NCBI GenBank assembly: GCA_964447495.1
Contig: CAYUTF010000003.1
Location: forward strand, 1 to 64,000
Source of the DNA: an uncultured archaeon
GTDB taxonomy: Archaea > Asgardarchaeota > Lokiarchaeia > Sigyniarchaeales > SOKP01
DNA length: 64,000 bases
Direction: 5' to 3'
The position numbers and the translations under genes are program-made. The notes beneath the pieces were generated by a model that searched no databases, was not told the origin of the DNA, and saw only the letters and a list, made by a program, of their open reading frames with translations. Below, piece by piece: positions 17,454-57,422 of this stretch. Every line of letters begins with the position of its first letter. The stretch's first letter is position 1.

Positions 17454-18002
17454 TTAATTTTTTTCCTTACAATTTGGGCACACAGAGACTCCCTCATCCA
17501 ATGGAGCTCCGCAATGCTTGCAAATGCGTTCTTCCCTATCCTCAGTTTTCTTGGTTGAGGGGACGACATTTGTTTGGGCTGCCGCATCCAAATCATCTGG
17601 GGGGCTCGGAGGATTATAAATATAGGGATATGGAAACCCAGGAAAACGGTCTTTTCCAGAATCTAATAAATTTCTGCCTAAGTGTATATCTTTATCTGCG
17701 GACACTAATAGAATTGCATTTGGACCAGCCTTGGAAACTAAAAGATAGCCGTCACTCCCTTTAATGGAGAGTTCATCGAAATCTCCCCTATTCATGTCAA
17801 AGATTGCCTGTTTTGATAATGAGAATAGAGCTGCGCTCAATGCAGCAATCTTGGTCTCATCGATATCGCGAGGTAAAATCCAGGAAATCGGCAGACCTTC
17901 AGTCGAGGCGATAGCTACTGCTCTTACTCCTGAGATTGCGGCTAATAATTTTTTAAGTAAATCATCGAGCGAATCTGGTGTACTGGGCTCCACTTTGGAC
18001 AT
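17454..18002 (-). CDS. Roadblock/LC7 (MglB-like) protein with Pro-rich linker and C-terminal Zn ribbon
   Basis: VAIASTEGLPIS...IAALSAAL...LSIKGSDGYLLV; FPYPYIYNPPSPPDD; CKHC..CPNC. Confidence 0.88.
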   Translation of the reverse strand: MSKVEPSTPDSLDDLLKKLLAAISGVRAVAIASTEGLPISWILPRDIDETKIAALSAALFSLSKQAIFDMNRGDFDELSIKGSDGYLLVSKAGPNAILLVSADKDIHLGRNLLDSGKDRFPGFPYPYIYNPPSPPDDLDAAAQTNVVPSTKKTEDREERICKHCGAPLDEGVSVCPNCKEKN

Positions 18003-18182: not shown

Positions 18183-19532
18183 ATGTACGATAAGAATTTT
18201 AAAATCATCATTTTTGGAGATGGCGGAACGCCTAAACAAGAACTCGTCCAGCGATTTTTAACTAATTTATATACTACAGACTCAAAAATGACGATAGGCG
18301 TAGATTTTAATGTAAAGAGTCTCATTGTTGATAAACAGAAAGTTAAATTACAAATTTGGGTTTTTGGAGGAGAGGAACGATTTCGGTGTCTTATTCCAAC
18401 TTACGTAAGAAGGGCTCGGGGTGGTATTTTCGTTTATGATATAACCAATTACTCAACGCTCGCCCATATTGATGACTGGTTAAAGATAATAAGGAAAGAA
18501 ATTGGTGTAGAAGATTGTTTTCCCATATTAGTCGTTGGAGGAAATGCAGAGCTAAGCGAGTATCGAGAAGTACCGGCCGAGGATGTCATCAAAATAGCGA
18601 AACCAAGAGGTCTTGATGGCTTTATAGAGTGTAGCGCCAAAACGGGAGAGAATGTAGAGGAAGCATTTAAAGCCTTAACAAGGTTAATCTTAAATTGCCC
18701 TCAAACAAGAGAAACTGGAGTTAGAACTGCTATTACTGATACAAACAGATATGATGTAACACATCCTGCTAGATTAGATCAGTATAAACCAAGAGAACTT
18801 GGTGCAACAGTTCCAGCTACTCCCGTTAGTTTAAGAGGGGCAATAATGAGTGAATTAAAACAAATATTAAATACACGAGTTTCGCAAAAAAATGAGAACA
18901 GAACTAGAGATATGAAGGAAAGAAGGGAAGAAATAGAAAAAATTCTTTCCAAAATCCTTGATAATAATAGGTTTCATCCCCCAACTTCCTCTACACAAAA
19001 ATATTTGGAACAACCTAATAGTACTGTTAAAATTGGTATAGATCAAGCGAAACAGAGTATATTGGATGATCCTGAAATAAAAATAAAAAGAATTCTGGAA
19101 TTGGAAAAGGAAAAAAAGAGAGAACAATCATTTTCACGAATAATCAAACGACTACAAGAAGCAACTCAACTCAAGGATAAAATGTTTATGGAACAGGATT
19201 TAGGAGAGTGGTTAGAAACTTTGAAGGGTTTAAAGAAGGGATGTGAAGAAATATTAATGTTTCTCAGAGATAAGAATCAAGAATATTATCATCATATTTC
19301 ATTTGAACAATGGAAATATTTACTAAGGGTCTCTTCAGAAATGTTAGAAGAATTCAAAGCGAATTCCTCATCTTTTTATAAAATGAGCGATGATACTAAA
19401 ATCAACCTCTATATTTTGTTTGAAATTTTTATCCCTTGTCGGGAAATATTAGGCGACGGTTCATTTGGGAAAAATGTTAAAGTAACCTTTGAGGAATATC
19501 TAAAAATGCTCAAACGAAAAAGAAATTCGTAA
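18183..19532 (+). CDS. Rab-like small GTPase domain (degenerate G1/G3/G4) fused to a long helical C-terminus
   Basis: FKIIIFGDGGTPK, TIGVDF, KLQIWVFGGEERF, FVYDIT, ECSAKTGENVEEAF. Confidence 0.88.
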   Translation: MYDKNFKIIIFGDGGTPKQELVQRFLTNLYTTDSKMTIGVDFNVKSLIVDKQKVKLQIWVFGGEERFRCLIPTYVRRARGGIFVYDITNYSTLAHIDDWLKIIRKEIGVEDCFPILVVGGNAELSEYREVPAEDVIKIAKPRGLDGFIECSAKTGENVEEAFKALTRLILNCPQTRETGVRTAITDTNRYDVTHPARLDQYKPRELGATVPATPVSLRGAIMSELKQILNTRVSQKNENRTRDMKERREEIEKILSKILDNNRFHPPTSSTQKYLEQPNSTVKIGIDQAKQSILDDPEIKIKRILELEKEKKREQSFSRIIKRLQEATQLKDKMFMEQDLGEWLETLKGLKKGCEEILMFLRDKNQEYYHHISFEQWKYLLRVSSEMLEEFKANSSSFYKMSDDTKINLYILFEIFIPCREILGDGSFGKNVKVTFEEYLKMLKRKRNS

Positions 19533-19565
19533 ATACCTAGAAAAGTATGGGAAATCAGTATAGAT

Positions 19566-21431
19566 TTATATAGATTGATCTTTAACTGGCTTCGAACCTA
19601 ACAATTCGAGAATTCTATCAAAATCACTAAATTTAAAAGATTTAAAGATAATGCCGTTTGCACCGGTCTCTTCCATATGTCTCTCCACTTCAGAGCCAGG
19701 AAGAGTAGTAAAAAAAAATACCGGGATATCTTTCCACTTTGGATTTGATCTTATCCGTTTGCAGAGTTCATATCCACTATAATCGGGTATTATAATGTCT
19801 AGCAATATTACTTTAGGGATGTTATTGTTTAGTTCCTCAAATCCTTTTTTCCCGCCGATAACTCCTTTGCAGGAATAACCCTTACTTTCAAAATACGCCA
19901 TTGGCAATCTAATTGTATCTGGATAGCCATATCCTTCAACAAAAAGGATATCATAATAAGTACGTTCTGTTTTTTGTTTAATCTCTTCTTTGAAAAAAAT
20001 CGGAATGGAATCGGGAATAAGGAAATCATTTCTTATTCTCTTTTCAAATTGATGGAGGTGAGGTGGATAAACACCTATTTGCAATATTTTTTTAAAAACT
20101 AACCATCTAATATATGTTTCTATTGTAGATTTTATCTCTTCATTTTCTTTATCATTCAAGTGTTTTTTTAATTCCTGTTTTAATAGGTCTTCAAATCCCC
20201 TTTTTTTTTGTTCTAATTTTTTTCCATACTCTACTTTTTCTTCTTCTTCTTTTCTTCTTTCTTCAATCTTTTTGGATTCTTTCAGTCGTTTTAAACTTCT
20301 TATTTTTGAACGGAAAAATTCTTTTTTACATTCTCTCCTAGTCTTAATGGCATATTTATACAATCTCTCTAAAAACTCAATAATCTCCTTATAGTGAGTT
20401 TTTTTCTCATTGGCAAAGATGTTTAATGGCTTCGTACCCACTTTCAATGCCCTCCTTTTAAGAGTTTCAATTATGGACTTTGCCATCGAAGGACTAATCT
20501 TCGGGCTTTCCTCAACTCTCATCATTTTGTATAAATCGGGATTCAGTGTTGCTATATGATGAAGTATTTCAATTCCCGTTGCTTCTTCTTTTAATTTTCT
20601 GAGAAGCACGCCATAAAAGTTTATTAACACTCCAAATTTTTCGGGAGAGTCCAGAAAGTCTTCTTTTAGGGTTCTTAATACAGGCATTACAATTTCTAAT
20701 TTCTTATCCTTTTTTTTTTCAAATTCTTGACTTACCCTTTGTTCATCCGATTTAAGATTGCCCTTGCTTTTTGAAACTAGATCTTCGCTTTTTATTTTCT
20801 CTTTTTTAACTTTAGGCTTTTTTAAGGTTTTAATAAACTTTTTCTTTATCTTAAAAGATTGTTTTTTAATCTCTTTACCTTCTTTTTCCGAACAACTAGT
20901 AAATTTACTTTCGGTTCGTTTTAATATTAGCTGTGTCATTACTTCAAATGTTTTATTAACATTTTGCCCTGTTTTGGCAGATATCTCTGAAAATGATGCT
21001 AATTCGTTCTTTTCAGCAACTTGAAGTCCATATTCTCTTGTAATTTGACGTTGTGTTTCTGCAAGATCGAGATTTGTTCCGACAAGCATAATTGGAATAT
21101 TTCCTGATTTTTGACGTACTATATTAGTCCAATCACCAATATGACCCAGAGTTTGGGGGTTTGTAATATCATAAAGTATGAACACTCCATTTGCTCCTAA
21201 ACAATAGGTTGGTAATAAAAATCTGAATCGTTCTTCTCCTCCCACATCCCAAATCTTAAGCTTGATCTTTTTTCCCCGAACTTCAACCGTTTTTACATGA
21301 AAATCAACCCCAATTGTCAGTCTCTCTGATGGATTGAAAATATCATAGCAATACCGCTTAGTAAACGCAACTTTTTCTACGCTCTCATCTCCCAATAACA
21401 ATATCTTGAATTCATAGTAGTATGAAGACAT
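19566..21431 (-). CDS. Rab-like small GTPase - charged helical linker - response-regulator receiver (REC) fusion
   Basis: N-term FKILLLGDESVEK, TIGVDF, WDVGGEERF, EISAKTG; C-term DILFVE...PKVILLDIIIPDYSGYELCKRIR...IPVFFFT...GANGIIFK. Confidence 0.88.
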   Translation of the reverse strand: MSSYYYEFKILLLGDESVEKVAFTKRYCYDIFNPSERLTIGVDFHVKTVEVRGKKIKLKIWDVGGEERFRFLLPTYCLGANGVFILYDITNPQTLGHIGDWTNIVRQKSGNIPIMLVGTNLDLAETQRQITREYGLQVAEKNELASFSEISAKTGQNVNKTFEVMTQLILKRTESKFTSCSEKEGKEIKKQSFKIKKKFIKTLKKPKVKKEKIKSEDLVSKSKGNLKSDEQRVSQEFEKKKDKKLEIVMPVLRTLKEDFLDSPEKFGVLINFYGVLLRKLKEEATGIEILHHIATLNPDLYKMMRVEESPKISPSMAKSIIETLKRRALKVGTKPLNIFANEKKTHYKEIIEFLERLYKYAIKTRRECKKEFFRSKIRSLKRLKESKKIEERRKEEEEKVEYGKKLEQKKRGFEDLLKQELKKHLNDKENEEIKSTIETYIRWLVFKKILQIGVYPPHLHQFEKRIRNDFLIPDSIPIFFKEEIKQKTERTYYDILFVEGYGYPDTIRLPMAYFESKGYSCKGVIGGKKGFEELNNNIPKVILLDIIIPDYSGYELCKRIRSNPKWKDIPVFFFTTLPGSEVERHMEETGANGIIFKSFKFSDFDRILELLGSKPVKDQSI

Positions 21432-21663
21432 TTTAGTTTCAAATTCAGGTTAATTTTTTTTGCGTAGTATTGAAATTTAATTAATTTGAGAACCTCCCTT
21501 TACCAAATAGTGGTAATAAATTAACCTATTTAAATTCGACATTTTTGTCCCTTTCTCTAAAGAATAAGGAATATCCGCCTATACAAATATGTATATAAGA
21601 AGGTATTAGTATTATATAAATTAAGAAAACCTAACTTTTGAGTACTTTATCCAGAACTAAATC

Positions 21664-21969: not shown

Positions 21970-23232
21970 TTACTTATGTACTTTCTGTTCCAATATTTCC
22001 ATAAAGGTTTCTACTTGATTATTCATCTGCTCTTCATTAAATTTACGTGGATCATTCATATCTGCAGATACAATCAAGCAGGGAATATTATAATCTTCCA
22101 TCAAATGTCTCTTTAGATCATATAATCCACAAGAATTTGGACGACACGACAGATTTTCATGCATTATAACGGCATCAATTTTCCATTCTTTAACCGTCTC
22201 GGCAAATTTCTTTATACGGGTTTTTAAATCATATATATACCAGAAGCTTAGCATTAATTCTGCCATTGCCTCAATTGGCTTGTTTAAGACCATTTCCTTC
22301 GTAACTTTTGGATTCATATACTTGCTAAATGCATAGGTATAGGGTTCGTACACTATAATGGCGCCATACTTTTCTAAATTGCTAAACCACTTAAGCGAAT
22401 GCCAGTAAGGAATGCCTTCAAACATCAATCTATACTTCTCATGTTTCAGGGCACCTACGCCTTTCTCTACCCGTTCTTTCGCTTCTTTATACATTCTTTT
22501 GTATAGTCTAATGGGTTCCTTTAAGCCAGGCATAGTAAATAAGGGAAACAGACCTCCGAACGTATCGCGCGTTGAAATTGGACAGGGCACATTTTTCCTC
22601 AATTCATATATCTGTTGCCATACCATACTTAAATCCCAGGAATTTTTAGAGACTTCTCGTGCCTTTTCTTCATCATATTCGTTTCCGGTAACTTCCTGGA
22701 TGAAATCTAATAGTTCATAGAGTTGTTCTGAGACATATTTTTTGAAATAATTATATTGCCGATTGTTGGTGTTGCTAACGACATGAGGAACATCGATGCT
22801 ATAATGAGGGACATTAAGGCGTTCGGCTTGAACTTGAAACCAATTGACATGAGTATCACAAATGACATCGGTTGAAAGCATGAAACTTGGCTTTCGCGTT
22901 CCACCTTGAATCATATTTGCGTTACTTAACACTGCTCCCACATTAGTTTTAAAATATGAACACAAATCATAAGAATAGCCCTCGTCTTCTGCCTTTTCTA
23001 TAAAATTTTTCGAGAATTTCTGAGCAGCGGACACAGTGGCAGAATTTTCAGGTAACATCGGTTGTACGTCCATAGCATATAAGACTTCTACAGGGCTCCC
23101 TGAAGTAGCCCATGCAGTCGGTTTTCCATCTCGAAATGCCTGTTCAATCGCGAGAAAATGACGGCCCATAATATTTTTTAAGCCTTGGGTCGCGTTAAGC
23201 ATCTTATTACTAGTTTGTTGTTGTTTAGACAT
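21970..23232 (-). CDS. 2-hydroxyacyl-CoA dehydratase / benzoyl-CoA reductase-like Fe-S subunit (HgdA/BzdO-like)
   Basis: PENS, GYSYDLCSY, ICD, IDVP, SCRP, DMNDPR...QVETFME. Confidence 0.87.
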   Translation of the reverse strand: MSKQQQTSNKMLNATQGLKNIMGRHFLAIEQAFRDGKPTAWATSGSPVEVLYAMDVQPMLPENSATVSAAQKFSKNFIEKAEDEGYSYDLCSYFKTNVGAVLSNANMIQGGTRKPSFMLSTDVICDTHVNWFQVQAERLNVPHYSIDVPHVVSNTNNRQYNYFKKYVSEQLYELLDFIQEVTGNEYDEEKAREVSKNSWDLSMVWQQIYELRKNVPCPISTRDTFGGLFPLFTMPGLKEPIRLYKRMYKEAKERVEKGVGALKHEKYRLMFEGIPYWHSLKWFSNLEKYGAIIVYEPYTYAFSKYMNPKVTKEMVLNKPIEAMAELMLSFWYIYDLKTRIKKFAETVKEWKIDAVIMHENLSCRPNSCGLYDLKRHLMEDYNIPCLIVSADMNDPRKFNEEQMNNQVETFMEILEQKVHK

Positions 23233-23242
23233 AATAACACCT

Positions 23243-24295
23243 CTAAATCATTTCAGCAAACGCTGAAAATCTAGTTGATAATTGTTTATATGCTTCTCTG
23301 TTATAAGTTACTTCTACAAACAGATAAGGAATTCCAAGTTCTTTAAATTTTTTACTTAAATATGGATGATCATATAATACTGGTTCACAAAATTTTTGTG
23401 CTATATTGATAACCCCGTCAGCCTTATAAGTTTGAGCTAACATTTTTAAATGATTAAATCGTTCATAGGAAGGAAATTTAGTAGCATAGATTGGTTTTTC
23501 GAGATGATATTTAGCAAGTGCCTTGATTGGTTCCTCTCCTTCGTCTACAGTATGCCAGAAATATTTTGTCCCGACACATAAATCATCAATTACTATTGTA
23601 AATCCTAAATCTTCGAGATATTTAAGAAATTCAGTATCATCAATATCGGACCCTGTAAGTAATATCTTTTTCTTCTTATCAATTTTTTGAAGAGGGTCTT
23701 TCGATGTTATTTTGTCTAACGTCGATTTCAGCAATTTAAGTGACTCATCCTTATTTGATTGCTGGACATTTTTAACTAGCGCATGAAATTCTGAACCTGT
23801 TATGATCATTTTGGAACGAAATTCAGAGATTTTTTTCAACATTGCTCTTATTTGATTCATTTTTTTTATTTCTTCCTTAAGGCCATTTTCTGAGATTTTT
23901 ACTTTAAAAGTTTCTTCTAATTGTGCAATTAGTTCCTTTAAATCATCCATAAAAAATCTTAATGATACTTTATCTCGTTTTCTTGGTGAATTTAAAAAAA
24001 ACATAAAACCAAGCTTCACACATTCCAACCAAATATCAAATTCTCTATTTGTACGGTCGCAACCATGTGTTGCAATTAATCCTACAATGTCCTTATCTAA
24101 CCCTCTTATTGCTTGTTCTAAAAGGTTTCTAGTCCATAAACAATGCGTTGGAGGGATATGTTCATTAGCTCTGTCTACTTGGAGATTTGGATCACCAAAC
24201 AGTCTATATGGTGTGAAACCCGCAGCAAGTATAATTTCTTCGGGAGTTTCAACTCCACTATCAAATATAGCAATTTTTTTCATAATCGTTTTCAT
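23243..24295 (-). CDS. 2-hydroxyacyl-CoA dehydratase / benzoyl-CoA reductase-like Fe-S subunit (HgdB/BzdN-like)
   Basis: PEEIILAAG, HCLW, HGCD, DDLCVGT, KFCEP, TRFSAFAEMI. Confidence 0.87.
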   Translation of the reverse strand: MKTIMKKIAIFDSGVETPEEIILAAGFTPYRLFGDPNLQVDRANEHIPPTHCLWTRNLLEQAIRGLDKDIVGLIATHGCDRTNREFDIWLECVKLGFMFFLNSPRKRDKVSLRFFMDDLKELIAQLEETFKVKISENGLKEEIKKMNQIRAMLKKISEFRSKMIITGSEFHALVKNVQQSNKDESLKLLKSTLDKITSKDPLQKIDKKKKILLTGSDIDDTEFLKYLEDLGFTIVIDDLCVGTKYFWHTVDEGEEPIKALAKYHLEKPIYATKFPSYERFNHLKMLAQTYKADGVINIAQKFCEPVLYDHPYLSKKFKELGIPYLFVEVTYNREAYKQLSTRFSAFAEMI

Positions 24296-24413
24296 AAATA
24301 ATATTCATATTTCCTATAGATAATCTTGATAATTTTAAAAAAATATTTATATTTTTCATTCATTTAATAGAGTATTCTATAAGTGGATTTTGATATTTGG
24401 AATTGATTTTATT

Positions 24414-25055: not shown

Positions 25056-25427
25056 ATGGATTCATTGCAAGTCGAAAGTATTAACAAAGAACTAAATAAG
25101 TTTGAATTATTAGCGGGAATTCTGGGTTTGGCAATTGTTGATCGTAATGGTCTTACAATCCTTTCTCGGTTACCGCGATCAATTGAAGAACGTAAGTTTG
25201 GAGCTATGGCTACTACATTAATAGGGGCAATGGAAACCGCTACTGCTCCTTTTAAAGAAGATTTAATTAATCTAACTATTGAATTTGAAAATTCTCAACT
25301 AATAATAATGAGTTCAGATACTAATATTATCTTGGTTGTTTTTACTGAACTTGGGATTGATTTAGGATTTATGTTAATTGAAATAGAAGAGATTTTAACA
25401 AATATTAAAAATATTTTACGAGGTTAA
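25056..25427 (+). CDS. Roadblock/LC7 domain protein
   Basis: GILGLAIVDRNGLTI, FGAMATTL, LTIEFENSQLII, LGFMLIEI. Confidence 0.85.
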   Translation: MDSLQVESINKELNKFELLAGILGLAIVDRNGLTILSRLPRSIEERKFGAMATTLIGAMETATAPFKEDLINLTIEFENSQLIIMSSDTNIILVVFTELGIDLGFMLIEIEEILTNIKNILRG

Positions 25428-25433
25428 ATTGCT

Positions 25434-26186
25434 ATGCTAACAGAAGAAGAAAAGGAAAGATATAGTAGACAGATTATCTCTCCTTCAATAGGAGAAAAGG
25501 GTCAAGAAAAATTAGGTAAAATTAGTGTATTACAAATTGGTGCTGGCGGTCTTGGTTCTCCGTTTGCATTATATATAGTCTCTGCGGGGATAAAAGAATT
25601 GACGATTATAGATAATGATGTCGTTTCACTTTCTAATTTACAGCGTCAAATTCTTTACGGAGAAAAACAAATAGGTATGGATAAGGTTAATGCTGCTAAG
25701 AGTGTTTTAAAAGAACATAATTCAAAAGCACAAATCAAAGTATATAAAGATTATATTGACGATAAATCAATGAAGAAATACATTGATGAGAAGAATTATG
25801 ATTTTATTGTTGACTGTAGCGATAATTTCAAAACCAAATTTTTAGTAAATCGAACAGCTATAAACTATAATATTAAATGTGTTATAGCTGGGATTAAGGA
25901 TTTTTATGGTCAAATAATGAGTATTGATCCAAAGAATTCAGCATGTTATCAATGTGTATTTAATGAACCTTCAGAACTTCAAGGAGTTTTAGATCCACTC
26001 CCCGTTATTGGGGTTACACCTGGGATTTTGGGTACTTTAGAAGCATTAGAGGTGATAAAAACTACTTTAGGATTGCCAAATTTAGAAAATAAGTTATTAA
26101 TGGTTAATTTACTAAATCTCAAGTTTGATGCTATCGATCTCGTGAAAAATGAGAAATGTATTTGTTCTCAAAAGAGAAAAAAATAA
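25434..26186 (+). CDS. ThiF/MoeB/UbaA-family E1-like adenylyltransferase
   Basis: RYSRQ, GAGGLG, DNDVVSLSNLQRQ, DCSDN, CYQC. Confidence 0.9.
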   Translation: MLTEEEKERYSRQIISPSIGEKGQEKLGKISVLQIGAGGLGSPFALYIVSAGIKELTIIDNDVVSLSNLQRQILYGEKQIGMDKVNAAKSVLKEHNSKAQIKVYKDYIDDKSMKKYIDEKNYDFIVDCSDNFKTKFLVNRTAINYNIKCVIAGIKDFYGQIMSIDPKNSACYQCVFNEPSELQGVLDPLPVIGVTPGILGTLEALEVIKTTLGLPNLENKLLMVNLLNLKFDAIDLVKNEKCICSQKRKK

Positions 26187-30780: not shown

Positions 30781-32271
30781 TTAAAATTTATCAAAAAATT
30801 GAGTAATCCTTAATTGTTTTTTATCATCAAGAAATTGTAAGAAACTAGTCGTTGGTTTTCCATTCCATAATGCACTACTTGAGTTTTTAGTTTCGAACTT
30901 CTCAATATCCTTGTGAGTAAAATTATAATTATTCATGTGATCTTTAAGTTTAAAAAGCCACTTTACAAAATTCTTATATAATCTTCCGTTAATTCCCGCT
31001 TTCGATTTATGATATTTCTCATAATAGATTTCATCATTTTCGGTATATTCTGTGTAATAACGGAAATTCTGCCCCATCCAAAAAAAGTTTGAAACTGAAT
31101 CCGAAAAGTCACTAATCCTACAATCAGTTAGTTTAAGCATTTCAAGCGAATTTAAATCTTCAAGGAATTCAGGAATCTTATTTATATTGATATTACCTGA
31201 AAGGTCAAGAGTTTCTAATTTCTTTAATTCCTCGATACCTTCTATTTCTTTTATGTAATTATTTTTTAAATTCAACTTCTTTAGATTTATGAAATTTTCC
31301 AGTCCTTTTATCATTGTTATTCTGTTATTACTCAAATCTAATTCTTCAATTGACTCACTAATACTATCTAAACCTTGAATATCTGGAATATGTTCTATCA
31401 TTTTATTTCTTAAATTTAGAGTATTATCAATAACTAGACCAATTAAATTATTATGATATTTTACAATTTTAAAGTCTAATTCATCATAATTTATTTGAGC
31501 TTTATTTAGGAACTTTAAAAGAGGAAATCCTCTGTAATTCTTGTATTTATTATAGATTAATTCTACGAAATTTCGTCGATAATTAAATGGAATTTTTTCC
31601 ATCGCTTTAATTAGGATCAAATATTTGTAAGAAAACTGAAATGTGCCTAAAAATTTCGTTGTTGATTTTTTAATTGAAGAGATAGAATCAGGACTATCAA
31701 TTTCACTAAGGTGGTTAGATACTTTTCTTGAATATTCATCAATACTGGGGAAATCAATATCACCTAAAACACTCTCAAACTCCTCTTCAGTTAAATAATA
31801 CAAGTAACCATTTTGGGTTAAAAATCGAACTACAGTTGGATGTCCTGTAGCATACCGAATTGCGATTTCCTCTTTAAATCGACTTTTAGCTAAGGGGTCT
31901 CCTGCATCTGCTAAAGCTTTAAGCAAAGGAAAAGCTAAATTACGATGAAGTATACGCGTATCATAATTATTATCTGCCCAAGCTTGAAGATTGGAACAAT
32001 GACCCCAAAATTCTGTTTCAGGTGGAATTAAGTTATGATTACGCTCCATTTTACGATTCAACTTTGTTGCAGCTTCATCTATTGATCTGATCTCGTCATA
32101 TTCTTCTATTTTATCAATAGGAATATTTATTAATAGATACATACACTGTCTAAAAGGTCGATTGTTAACATATATAACAGTTCTTCTATTTTCTAATTTC
32201 AAGCTCATATACTCATTGATTTTGAACTCATTATTTCTGGGTTTGCTTCCTAAACTATTATTGAGAAACAT
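30781..32271 (-). CDS. Lokiarchaeal leucine-rich repeat protein with C-terminal PIP-box
   Basis: N-term EFKINEY..LKLE...FRQC...EFWGHCSNLQAW; LRRs LDLSNNRI, LNLKNNYI, LDLSGN; C-term QLRITQFF. Confidence 0.85.
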   Translation of the reverse strand: MFLNNSLGSKPRNNEFKINEYMSLKLENRRTVIYVNNRPFRQCMYLLINIPIDKIEEYDEIRSIDEAATKLNRKMERNHNLIPPETEFWGHCSNLQAWADNNYDTRILHRNLAFPLLKALADAGDPLAKSRFKEEIAIRYATGHPTVVRFLTQNGYLYYLTEEEFESVLGDIDFPSIDEYSRKVSNHLSEIDSPDSISSIKKSTTKFLGTFQFSYKYLILIKAMEKIPFNYRRNFVELIYNKYKNYRGFPLLKFLNKAQINYDELDFKIVKYHNNLIGLVIDNTLNLRNKMIEHIPDIQGLDSISESIEELDLSNNRITMIKGLENFINLKKLNLKNNYIKEIEGIEELKKLETLDLSGNININKIPEFLEDLNSLEMLKLTDCRISDFSDSVSNFFWMGQNFRYYTEYTENDEIYYEKYHKSKAGINGRLYKNFVKWLFKLKDHMNNYNFTHKDIEKFETKNSSSALWNGKPTTSFLQFLDDKKQLRITQFFDKF

Positions 32272-55871: not shown

Positions 55872-57422
55872 ATGGTAAACGATAACCATGAAAGTAATCA
55901 GCTTAATATAGAATATTTGAACCAAATAAAAGATGGCGTTTTTAATACTTTAGTAAATGAATTCCCTGACATAGTACTAATTTTCGATGAAGAAGGTAGG
56001 ATAGTATATGTTTCGAGAAATACTTTTTCTTATTTTGATATTCAAACCGAAAATGGACTACTAGGAAAAAACTTTCAAGAATTAGCAACCTCAGACTATA
56101 AAGAGAAAATTAAAAAAGATTTAAATCAAGCAAAAGAGGGTAAAAGCCTAAGTATGTTTGAATATGAATTTTATGGAAGAAATGGATCTAAATTCATTGG
56201 AGAATTAAGCTTAAGTCACTTCATTCATCAGAAAGATAATAAAAAATATTTTTTAGGGATAATTAGGGATATTACTAATCAAAAAATCATTGAAATTGAA
56301 TTAAGAGAAAATAAGCAAATGTTACAATTGGTAATGGATAATATCCCACAATTGATATCTTGGAAAGATGTCAATTCTACATATTTAGGATGCAATAAAA
56401 ATTTTGCTCGCATAGCTGGATTAAATAACCCAGTAGATATTATAGGGAAAACTGATTATGAGTTACCATGGAAAATTAGTGAAGCGGAATCTTTCTTTGA
56501 AACCGATCAATTAGTAATAAATACCAATAAACCAGAATATCATATTATTGAGCCTCAGCTTCAAGCTGATGGAAAGCAGGCATGGTTAGACACAAATAAG
56601 ATACCATTACATAATTCTAAAGAAGAAGTTGTGGGCATTATATGTACTTATGAAGATATTACTGAACGAGTAAATTCAGATACAGCATTAAAAAATTCAG
56701 AATTGAAATATAAAGAAGCATATAATCGAGCAGAATTTTATAAAGATGTATTTGCTCACGATGTGAGTAATATTCTCCAAGGAATTTTATTTTCAGTGGA
56801 ACTATGTCGATATAATTCGAAAGAATCAAGAAAAGTTAAAGACTTAGAAAATTTCTTTGATATCATTGAAGACCAAGTTAGTCGAGGAGCGAATCTAGTT
56901 TCAAATGTAAGAAAGATATCTTCTATCGATGATATTGGGAGTAAGTTAGAAAAAGTAGAAGTATGCAATCTATTGAACGTCTCAATCGAAAACATAAAAA
57001 AAAGTTTTTCGAAAAGAAAAATAACTTTTTCATTAAAAAAAAAATATGAATATTTATACGTTCAAGCTAATCATTTAATATTAGATATTTTCAATAATAT
57101 TCTTTATAATGCTGTAAAACATAATAAAAGGCCAACTGTAAAAATAGCAATAGATATAACTAAAAAATTTATCGAAAATGAATCGGTCATCAAATTAGAA
57201 TTCAAGGATAACGGTTTTGGCATTCCAGATGCTCAAAAATTGAGTATTTTTGAACGAAATACAATAGAATCAAAAAACTTTAATCGCATAGGCTTAGGTT
57301 TATCTTTAGTGAAAAGGTTAATTGAAAATTATAATGGCGAAATTTGGGTAGAAGATAGAATTGAAGGAGATTATACTCAAGGGAGTAATTTTGTGATACT
57401 TATAAGAGAATATATAGATTAG
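55872..57422 (+). CDS. Soluble PAS-PAS sensor histidine kinase
   Basis: Two PAS/PAC domains (RDIT, EDITER); H-box AHDVSN; N-box NILYNAVKH; DNGFGI; GLGLSLV; GSNF. Confidence 0.93.
   Translation: MVNDNHESNQLNIEYLNQIKDGVFNTLVNEFPDIVLIFDEEGRIVYVSRNTFSYFDIQTENGLLGKNFQELATSDYKEKIKKDLNQAKEGKSLSMFEYEFYGRNGSKFIGELSLSHFIHQKDNKKYFLGIIRDITNQKIIEIELRENKQMLQLVMDNIPQLISWKDVNSTYLGCNKNFARIAGLNNPVDIIGKTDYELPWKISEAESFFETDQLVINTNKPEYHIIEPQLQADGKQAWLDTNKIPLHNSKEEVVGIICTYEDITERVNSDTALKNSELKYKEAYNRAEFYKDVFAHDVSNILQGILFSVELCRYNSKESRKVKDLENFFDIIEDQVSRGANLVSNVRKISSIDDIGSKLEKVEVCNLLNVSIENIKKSFSKRKITFSLKKKYEYLYVQANHLILDIFNNILYNAVKHNKRPTVKIAIDITKKFIENESVIKLEFKDNGFGIPDAQKLSIFERNTIESKNFNRIGLGLSLVKRLIENYNGEIWVEDRIEGDYTQGSNFVILIREYID

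Follow-up and report, generated by a model that had tools for sequence, protein, structure and literature searches.

In the genome of an uncultured Lokiarchaeial archaeon, a single open reading frame (ORF) encodes a protein, here called P0001, in which a Rab-like G domain and a receiver domain (REC) are joined. The ORF lies in the window, by which we mean the whole 64,000-nucleotide stretch that was analysed (positions 1 to 64,000 of contig CAYUTF010000003.1, GenBank assembly GCA_964447495.1; the genome is referred to as G000). P0001 is a true fusion within one polypeptide and reflects neither a chimeric assembly nor a frameshift error. This exact fusion is species-specific, and the wider architecture, a small GTPase joined to a REC, is not a singleton. 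In our estimate, it is an even call that P0001 serves as a phosphorylation-independent scaffold resembling the bacterial MglA/MglB/FrzS-RomR module, and not as the output of a phosphorelay.

Domain organization of P0001

The Pfam Ras profile matches residues 9–170 of P0001 (E 2.9e-41, 141.2 bits against a cut-off of 21.6) and Response_reg matches residues 511–604 (E 7.6e-13, 49.1 bits against a cut-off of 30.2). Both matches are far above chance, and the NCBIfam model small_GTP likewise matches. An original prediction, made from the letters of this DNA, had described one polypeptide with a Rab-like G domain and a REC, and the two profiles that it named both score above their cut-offs. The motifs that it quoted are all present in the 621-residue ORF, the altered P-loop included: GDESVEKV (residues 14–21), TIGVDF, KLKIWDVGGEERF, ILYDIT, TNLD (residues 119–122) and EISAK in the G domain, and VILLD545, FFFT575 and IIFK597 in the receiver. 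The Pfam search of P0001 gave no Robl_LC7 match, Roadblock being encoded by a separate gene. P0001 has no C-terminal prenylation Cys, and its G domain sits inside the 621-residue chain.

The part between the two domains had been taken for a Lys/Glu-rich helical spacer of about 300 residues. This description does not hold, since the middle of P0001 is made of several elements: a Lys-rich linker (residues 176–249), a helical module that starts at Met250, a long charged helix and a pre-REC module.

Contigs across the junction

Logan contigs from four runs, of which X1 is the likely source run, were aligned over positions 19400–21600. In X1, an independently assembled contig of 7130 nt covers the entire stretch with 0 differences. 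A contig of 303 nt from X3 (record 14), another salt-marsh sample, covers 20610–20912 with 0 differences and 0 gaps; it bridges both Met250 and a run of ten adenines (A10, 20710–20719) located 26 nt upstream of the Met250 ATG, and its flanks on the two sides of the run measure about 100 nt and 193 nt. Record 7 of X2 (20873–21033) fills the gap between two X3 contigs. No indel inside the P0001 ORF was reported in the contigs of the runs covering 19400–21600. The frame is near-identical in the contigs of three samples, X2 having two single-base differences (S220L and V164L, at a depth of 3–4); X2 and X3 possibly come from one sampling campaign and are thus not fully independent. Because contigs from two further samples tile the junction without indels, the fusion is neither a chimera nor a frameshift, and the assembly artefact that the original prediction had named as a way to be refuted finds no backing in the contigs of X1, X2 and X3. 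One joint listed inside the ORF belongs to an unrelated 41-kb contig with matches of just 21–24 nt per side, and was rejected.

The remaining two frames at the junction are full of stops, and a slip of +1 or −1 closes the frame within a few codons. Judging from the sequence at this place, slippage at A10 is conceivable, as is internal initiation at Met250 with separate products. A contig of 157 nt from an RNA library (X24, 20060–20216) gives a weak hint of transcription, possibly caused by DNA carry-over.

The G domain is Rab-like with altered nucleotide motifs

The PF00071 match covers profile positions 1–161 of 162. The best matches of the domain among solved structures are all eukaryotic Rabs, with Rab3A first (E 9.3e-35), followed by Sec4, Rab8 and Rab10, in agreement with the Rab-like assignment made earlier. 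The switch I Thr (LT39IGVDF) and the G3 motif DxxG (WD62VGG65) are both present, and SAK of G5 is kept. The G1 consensus GxxxxGK[ST] is not found; in GDESVEKV the second Gly is replaced by Glu and the Mg-binding Ser/Thr by Val. The catalytic Gln after DxxG is replaced by Glu66 (switch II DVGGE66), and G4 reads TNLD, with its Lys changed to Asn and its Asp kept. In Ras chemistry, the P-loop Ser/Thr serves as a ligand of Mg2+, and contact with the β-phosphate is made by the second Gly. As both are changed in P0001, we infer that its G domain has a weak or atypical nucleotide binding and no canonical hydrolysis.

The same positions were compared in 115 related Lokiarchaeial G domains, taken from the best matches to whole P0001. 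The second Walker-A Gly is kept in 62 of them, with Glu in 22 and Asp in 13, and the P-loop Ser/Thr position holds T/S in 78 and Val in 5. Glu also occupies the position of the catalytic Gln in most of the 115 domains listed. Switch I (LTIGVDF) and switch II (WDVGGEE) hardly vary, and G1, G4 and G5 are widely degenerate. Going by these motifs, many of the related Lokiarchaeial Rab-like proteins may be pseudo-GTPases or may have a shifted nucleotide specificity. The G4 motif of related Lokiarchaeial domains often ends in H, Y or N rather than D.

In a maximum-likelihood tree of G domains with 43 rows, the G domain of P0001 is sister to that of P0010, a GTPase-Roadblock fusion (76% identity, support 100/95), and the pair lies within a 14-row clade, starred in the tree, that holds the Glu-P-loop proteins (support 96/87). 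Since the Glu is common to this clade, it is a trait of a Lokiarchaeial clade and not a private defect of P0001; the Val at the Mg-binding position is rarer. The end branch of the P0001 G domain is short (0.13 against a median of 0.19), so the domain is not fast-evolving and displays no sign of relaxed constraint. A canonical Walker A is found in 50 of the 57 G domains of G000, and both convergent GTPase genes of this locus are among the other 7.

The receiver domain has lost its second acidic residue

The Response_reg match in P0001 spans only profile positions 15–106 of 111. There are 13 REC matches in G000; 12 of them begin at profile position 1 or 2, and the REC of P0001, beginning at 15, is the sole one that does not match positions 1–14. 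The REC residues were scored on a MAFFT alignment of 32 rows. At the acidic pair, where its relatives read [IV]-[ED]-D-D, P0001 reads V-E-G-Y-G-Y-P-D with 2 extra residues, the pair becoming E499-G500. P0001 retains D545, T575 and K597, and has Ser598 where a Pro normally follows the Lys. The original prediction was right about the retained Asp, Thr and Lys and had overlooked E499-G500, K597-S598 and the profile start at 15.

According to PMC12632262, a domain missing any of five conserved amino acids is a pseudo-receiver, and the second acidic residue, which binds the metal directly, is non-acidic in about 80% of pseudo-receivers. As the metal-binding second acidic residue is lost, the REC of P0001 is, by its sequence, a pseudo-receiver in the sense given there. 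The loop around this position, VEG[YLG]GYP[DN]T (the EG loop), is kept in six proteins with different contexts, namely P0001, P0002, P0003, P0009, P0272 and P0293, and such conservation argues for a maintained alternative rather than random decay.

In a panel of 31 related genomes, the best matches of this REC (57–65% identity) occur in frames of 314–351 residues, which are HisKA-REC proteins. Beside its 13 REC matches, G000 has 12 HisKA matches, 11 of them over the cut-off; the two-component parts on which the original prediction counted are thus present in the genome. On contig C12 of G000 (22607–24340), two adjacent genes encode HisKA-REC proteins of 319 and 345 residues, whose RECs, 65% and 50% identical to that of P0001, are its closest paralogues in the genome. 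An Arc-type RHH-HisKA-REC architecture (RHH, ribbon-helix-helix) is described for Lokiarchaeum in Galperin et al. 2018 (PMC5847659). A predicted complex of the G domain with the REC scored 0.11, the mark being 0.32, and gives no answer either way.

GTPase and receiver domains are joined repeatedly

Is P0001 alone in its architecture? Among the 120 best whole-protein matches, two carry both Ras and REC Pfams, P0001 itself and P0003. A Pfam scan of 27 of the nearest REC relatives revealed four further fusions: P0127 (Ras and REC), P0133 (Ras and REC, with a middle that looks like a helix-turn-helix (HTH) by eye), P0125 (Arf/MglA-like and REC) and P0130 (REC first, Ras last). A word search for the REC only, with 3 fusions among its 10 matches, added P0272. 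The search with P0272 in turn found eight GTPase+REC proteins in its 120 best matches, P0272, P0277, P0125, P0278, P0279, P0280, P0003 and P0001, of which P0279 combines an MglA-like domain, a REC and a Rab-like domain. The total is at least 11 GTPase+REC clusters (P0001, P0003, P0127, P0130, P0133, P0125, P0272, P0277, P0278, P0279 and P0280), which show four or more arrangements; in six of the clusters the G domain is MglA-like. Each cluster is small, with 1–6 member sequences, and all but P0001 come from metagenome contigs. The record of P0280 at JGI is automatically named 'CheY-like chemotaxis protein/GTPase SAR1 family protein', the combination thus being visible in databases.

The G domain of P0272 is MglA-like (E 1.7e-19 to MglA against about 1e-9 to Arf), and its REC is of the same EG type as that of P0001, with 75% identity. 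P0272, P0277, P0125, P0278, P0279 and P0280 constitute a family of MglA-like GTPase+REC proteins with 65–79% identity over 93–100% of their length, in which the REC Lys is Q, A or H in four of the six.

One or more of the REC's five conserved residues is missing in 10 of the 11 GTPase-fused RECs and in 0 of the 5 HisKA-REC relatives in the alignment, a descriptive count, with no statistical test, of related proteins and not of independent events. P0001, P0003, P0272 and P0130 have lost the second acidic residue; P0127 has Asn in place of the acceptor Asp; the Lys is missing from P0125, P0277, P0278, P0280 and P0130; in P0279 Pro replaces the Thr; and P0133 alone is fully canonical. The residues of P0277–P0280 were read by eye.

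Two other recurrent combinations were seen. A domain of about 250 residues with 'FWGHCSNLQAWYE', usually followed by a CxxC...CxxC zinc ribbon and without a Pfam family, occurs in fusions with Rab-like GTPases, with REC or with the two together (P0012–P0060, P0003, P0008, P0009, P0126, P0130 and P0134). A leucine-rich repeat (LRR) protein is encoded in the window at 30781–32271 (minus strand), and related metagenomic proteins include LRR+REC (P0128) and LRR+Rab-like GTPase (P0090, P0094) combinations, a ROCO-like theme.

The exact fusion is rare

A panel of 31 genomes was used, comprising G000, 18 further members of its genus and 12 of its order. A full-length match to P0001 was found in 1 of the 31, G000 alone. 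Residues 251–486 matched 2 of 151 genomes of the order, G000 and one marginal case (E 8.6e-4, 25% identity), and no credible match to the helical middle exists in the 150 other genomes of the order. The original prediction had named a singleton under relaxed selection as a way to be refuted; the exact fusion is indeed confined to one species, and the broader architecture recurs in the 11 clusters.

The best matches of the G domain in other genomes (68–74% identity) are stand-alone frames of 176–186 residues. These relatives have the canonical P-loop GDASVGKT and a conserved synteny, and the G000 copy is on contig C21. In the genus, the stand-alone GTPase (GDASVGKT; loci L002–L012) is always followed by a gene of 320 residues with an HTH-like stretch, and the two are fused in P0034. 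The named homologues of P0001 are in metagenome-assembled genomes (MAGs) of Lokiarchaeota/Promethearchaeota.

The middle region and the Met250 boundary

Residues 251–486 are 89–92% identical to P0002, P0004 and P0005. P0004, P0005 and P0007 are 75–79% identical to P0001 overall and 85–92% identical in the middle, and they start exactly at the equivalent of Met250; P0002 has unrelated sequence upstream of this point. As three relatives begin there and a fourth diverges there, Met250 marks, on comparison of these sequences, a module boundary. The pre-REC module has many columns without any variation across all 8 aligned proteins, and it is also matched in P0123 and P0124.

An AlphaFold2 (AF2) model of residues 251–486, made with an 8-row alignment, is all-helical with one helix of 77 residues (mean predicted local distance difference test (pLDDT) 56, predicted template modelling score (pTM) 0.35). 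The long charged helix (residues 349–425) may be a coiled coil. With residues 250–621 as the query, HMMER was run exhaustively over 1.84 billion representatives, and matches to the first helical module (before query position ~100) came from P0004 and P0006 only. P0004 was matched end to end and P0006 in three stretches, the latter having the module twice by reading of its sequence. The pre-REC module together with the REC was matched in P0003, P0006, P0009, P0123 and P0124, and more weakly in P0146. A search of the ESM Atlas with the middle region gave no usable match; a scan of genome contigs with P0005 gave REC-domain matches in Promethearchaeota MAGs only and none to the mid module; and a scan of metagenome contigs with low-complexity patterns from the alignment gave 5 unrelated gut REC loci.

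Genomic neighbourhood and a candidate Roadblock partner

G000 measures 3.81 Mb in 223 contigs and is 98.4% complete. The window is ordinary chromosome with genes for MtrH, an HgdAB-like dehydratase, LSM, ThiF, NadA and a tRNA-intron endonuclease, and with a PAS-PAS-HATPase kinase gene at 55872–57422; its GC content is about 27–38%, and the P0001 frame is at about 31%. The features of the locus are collected in Table 1.

Table 1. Features of P0001 and of two nearby genes, in window coordinates.
Feature	Position	Strand	Basis or remark
P0001, whole ORF: G domain, Lys-rich linker, helical middle, pre-REC module, REC	19566–21431	−	621 codons, 621 aa
Rab-like G domain, residues 9–170	20922–21407	−	Pfam Ras
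Altered Walker A GDESVEKV, residues 14–21	21369–21392	−	Second Gly to Glu; Mg-binding Ser/Thr to Val
Lys-rich low-complexity linker, residues 176–249	20685–20906	−	Composition; holds the A10 run
Internal ATG, Met250, module boundary	20682–20684	−	Start or divergence point of relatives
Conserved helical module, residues 250–348	20388–20684	−	Without Pfam family
Long charged helix, Lys/Glu/Arg-rich, residues 349–425	20157–20387	−	AF2 helix 99–175 of P0121; composition
Pre-REC module with DKENEEIKSTIETYIR and IPDSIPIFFKEEIKQKT, residues 426–492	19956–20156	−	Invariant columns in aligned proteins
Receiver domain, EG type, residues 493–611	19599–19955	−	Pfam Response_reg; residue table
Roadblock/LC7 and zinc-ribbon protein, 182 aa, two genes from P0001	17454–18002	−	Pfam Robl_LC7, E 2e-17
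Convergent neighbour, Rab-like GTPase, 449 aa	18183–19532	+	G1 GDGGTPKQ, switch II WVFGGEE, G4 GGNAE

Aligned along its full length with the C-terminal half of P0028, a GTPase-Roadblock-zinc-ribbon fusion, the Roadblock/LC7-zinc-ribbon protein shows 59% identity; its identity to the C-terminal half of P0010 is 49%. P0028 and P0010 are both GTPase-Roadblock fusions from P0001's own G clade. Because Roadblock-zinc-ribbon homologues are fused to G domains of this clade, the G domain of P0001 likely pairs with Roadblock, on such Rosetta-stone evidence; binding itself is inferred. P0028 and the stand-alone EG-type REC P0293 each list a JGI contig of 14701 nt as their longest, and the two may be neighbours. 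A short proline-rich motif, PPxPP[DE]D[LV], is seen repeatedly behind Roadblock domains and in pre-REC linkers, in the 17454–18002 product and in P0028, P0125, P0272, P0049 and P0059. A second Roadblock/LC7 gene (123 aa, 25056–25427, plus strand) is located just upstream of a ThiF-family gene (25434–26186).

In the convergent GTPase of 449 residues, the switch II Asp is lost and the tree branch is long, at 0.91. Its C-terminal 269 residues have no full-length homologue in the 41 other genomes of the genus. The metagenomic proteins P0011 and P0014 are tandem GTPase-GTPase proteins with the C-terminal domain of this neighbour. The HgdD neighbour is 81–84% conserved in four relatives and the flank beyond it differs, which marks a variable island; in G007 and G017 the HgdD/HgdA genes are shared, and then the neighbourhood diverges. 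Since no tRNA gene between 10000 and 30000 and no meaningful flanking repeats were found, the locus bears no sign of a mobile element.

Comparison with known systems

No published description of an Asgard GTPase-REC fusion was found in searches of the literature on Asgard small GTPases, Roadblock proteins and archaeal two-component systems, in line with the statement of the original prediction that no characterised example was known. Asgard small GTPases fused to longin or Roadblock domains are described in Tran et al. 2024 (PMC10933270). These resemble P0001 in the combination of a Rab-/Rag-like G domain with an added regulatory domain, which in P0001 is a receiver instead. The word 'receiver' occurs 0 times in the main text of that paper, supplements apart; 'GTPase' occurs 0 times in the main text of the archaeal two-component census (PMC5847659), supplements apart, and 0 times in the main text of PMC12632262.

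In Myxococcus, MglA is a Ras-like GTPase and MglB a Roadblock GAP. PMC4316618 reports that MglA interacts with AglZ, FrzS and RomR, all of which have receiver domains, and that MglB belongs to the Roadblock proteins; FrzS, treated as a pseudo-receiver in PMC12632262, meets MglA-GTP through SgmX. The likeness with the locus studied here is that a small GTPase, a Roadblock/LC7 protein and a receiver protein with a long helical region occur together, and P0272 brings an MglA-like G domain joined to the REC subtype of P0001. Different from the Myxococcus system, the G domain of P0001 is Rab-like, is covalently joined to the REC and belongs to an Asgard host; its middle module has no counterpart there, and P0001 is not known to have a role in polarity or motility.

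As compared with bacterial pseudo-receivers, P0001 deviates at the second acidic position, the commonest type according to PMC12632262, but is archaeal and fused to a small GTPase. With the eukaryotic Rabs (Rab3A, Sec4, Rab8 and Rab10; E ~1e-34), it has in common the switch I Thr, DxxG and SAK, whereas GDESVEKV, the Glu for the catalytic Gln, TNLD and the missing C-terminal prenylation Cys set it apart. The bacterial PatA-type regulators (PATAN and REC) have a similar layout, in which an N-terminal domain is followed by a helical region and then by the C-terminal REC, within about 630 residues. PatA_N+REC proteins are the top leads of a feature search with whole P0001, scoring 0.85–0.88, below the mark of 0.9; however, a Pfam PatA_N match is absent from P0001. 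PATAN genes are reported near some mglA and mglB genes (PMC4316618).

Discussion

How might such a protein have arisen and work? We propose that domain shuffling placed a Rab-like G domain of the Glu-P-loop clade before an existing gene with the helical module and the receiver. With its switch I and II surfaces intact, and without the Mg-binding Ser/Thr, the second Walker-A Gly, the catalytic Gln and the G4 Lys, the G domain would probably bind nucleotide weakly or without hydrolysis and serve mainly as a docking surface, for which the Roadblock/LC7-zinc-ribbon protein encoded at 17454–18002 would be the likeliest partner. The pseudo-receiver and the long charged helix would probably serve together for oligomerisation, localisation or the binding of partners, independently of phosphorylation. 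As a working analogy, MglA and MglB with FrzS, AglZ and RomR would come closest, here joined in cis. The weak or absent GTPase activity, the lack of phosphorylation, the scaffold role and all the binding partners of P0001 are put forward on the strength of sequence comparison. In this light, the pseudo-GTPase scaffold suggested by the original prediction is a reasonable reading, while its 'switched by phosphorylation' is doubtful given the loss of the second acidic residue; likewise, of the proposed link between prokaryotic phosphorelay and GTPase signalling, the physical joining of a receiver fold to a G domain stands and the phosphorylation switch probably does not.

Several points weigh against a phosphorylation-independent scaffold. 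Asp545, Thr575 and Lys597 are kept, the assignment of the acidic pair depends on the MAFFT alignment, and Asp505 in the longer β1–α1 loop could in principle replace the lost ligand; P0009 has Asn at this position. The losses of GTP binding, hydrolysis and phosphorylation are all deduced from motifs, and the excess of defective RECs among the GTPase fusions is a count of relatives. As G000 has about 12 HisKA-type kinases and the nearest REC paralogues are in HisKA-REC proteins, phosphotransfer to the REC of P0001 could still occur. The exact fusion is in 1 of 31 genomes, its mid module is credibly in 0 of 150 others of the order, and the relatives of the C-terminal part begin at Met250; P0001 may be a young neutral fusion or may give a short product of its own from there. 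Confidence in the AF2 model of the middle is low (pLDDT 56), and the RNA-library contig, the sole hint of transcription, stops short of the junction.

Some of these points would fit a true phosphorelay output, the model of the original prediction, in which one of the histidine kinases of G000 phosphorylates Asp545 and thereby switches the conformation, the nucleotide state or the partners of the G domain. The conserved D545, T575 and K597, the 13 REC and 12 HisKA matches in G000, the PAS-PAS-HATPase kinase at 55872–57422, the closest REC paralogues (57–65%) in HisKA-REC proteins and the related fusion P0133 with all five residues speak for such an output. Nevertheless, we consider it unlikely: the second acidic residue, a direct metal ligand, is Gly and K-P has become K-S; the Pfam match skips profile positions 1–14, unlike those of the 12 other G000 RECs; one or more catalytic residues are missing from 10 of the 11 GTPase-fused RECs, in P0127 even the phospho-acceptor; and no kinase gene adjoins P0001.

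We give a similarly low probability to a young, effectively neutral or decaying fusion of two adjacent genes, one for a G domain with a Lys-rich tail and the other for the helical part and the REC from Met250 onwards, that followed the loss of a stop or short spacer; the separate halves would then be the functional products, if any, for example by initiation at Met250. In its favour, the full-length match is limited to 1 of 31 genomes, the mid module has no credible match in 150 others, the starts of P0004, P0005 and P0007 coincide exactly with Met250, and this is also where P0002 diverges. The junction is of low complexity, with A10 26 nt upstream of the ATG and a frame that ends upon a ±1 slip. 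The locus is a variable island where synteny stops at HgdD and the C-terminal domain of the convergent GTPase is private, and both G domains of the locus are among the 7 of 57 in G000 without a canonical Walker A. Against such a fusion stand the short end branch of the G domain (0.13 against a median of 0.19), 621 codons kept open at ~31% GC and near-identical in the contigs of three samples, the conservation of the Glu-P-loop and of the EG loop each in several proteins, and the recurrence of GTPase+REC fusions in 11 clusters.

That two genes were joined by a chimeric assembly or by a frameshift error in a homopolymer, to which the origin from a MAG and the A10 run at the junction might point, is highly improbable, as the X1 contig has 0 differences across the stretch, the X3 contig has 0 gaps over 20610–20912, and no indel or joint falls in the ORF save that of the unrelated 41-kb contig with its matches of 21–24 nt.

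We thus return to P0001 as a candidate phosphorylation-independent scaffold and to what it may mean. Asgard archaea possess dozens of eukaryote-like small GTPases, with 57 G domains encoded by G000, and to our knowledge almost nothing is known about their regulation. Covalent fusions point to functional partners of these GTPases, and the 11 recurrent clusters suggest that receiver-fold modules, mostly pseudo-receivers, act on them. Multidomain Asgard GTPases and pseudo-receivers are already known; the GTPase+pseudo-receiver combination in Lokiarchaeia is a recurrent, undescribed theme. Being rare and species-specific, P0001 itself may have a small biological weight of its own. The fusions are also compact proteins for expression, nucleotide-binding and structural work, and the decayed nucleotide motifs beside invariant switches mean that many 'Asgard Rabs' are possibly pseudo-GTPases. 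The REC found with Rab-like and MglA-like G domains, and Roadblock fused within the G clade of P0001, would tie the MglA/MglB/receiver logic to the nearest archaea of eukaryotes. More tentatively, and with less confidence than in the scaffold itself, we suggest that Lokiarchaeia might have a dedicated class of pseudo-receivers as GTPase partners, of EG type or Lys-less in the MglA-like fusions, that bind and regulate Rab-like and MglA-like small GTPases without phosphorylation. If this is true, the fusions would be Rosetta stones that point to a widespread layer of regulation in Asgard archaea in which RECs act on GTPases in trans. Such a layer would correspond, in archaea, to the bacterial link between MglA and FrzS/RomR, and would be a candidate for an early regulator of those GTPase families which passed to eukaryotes.

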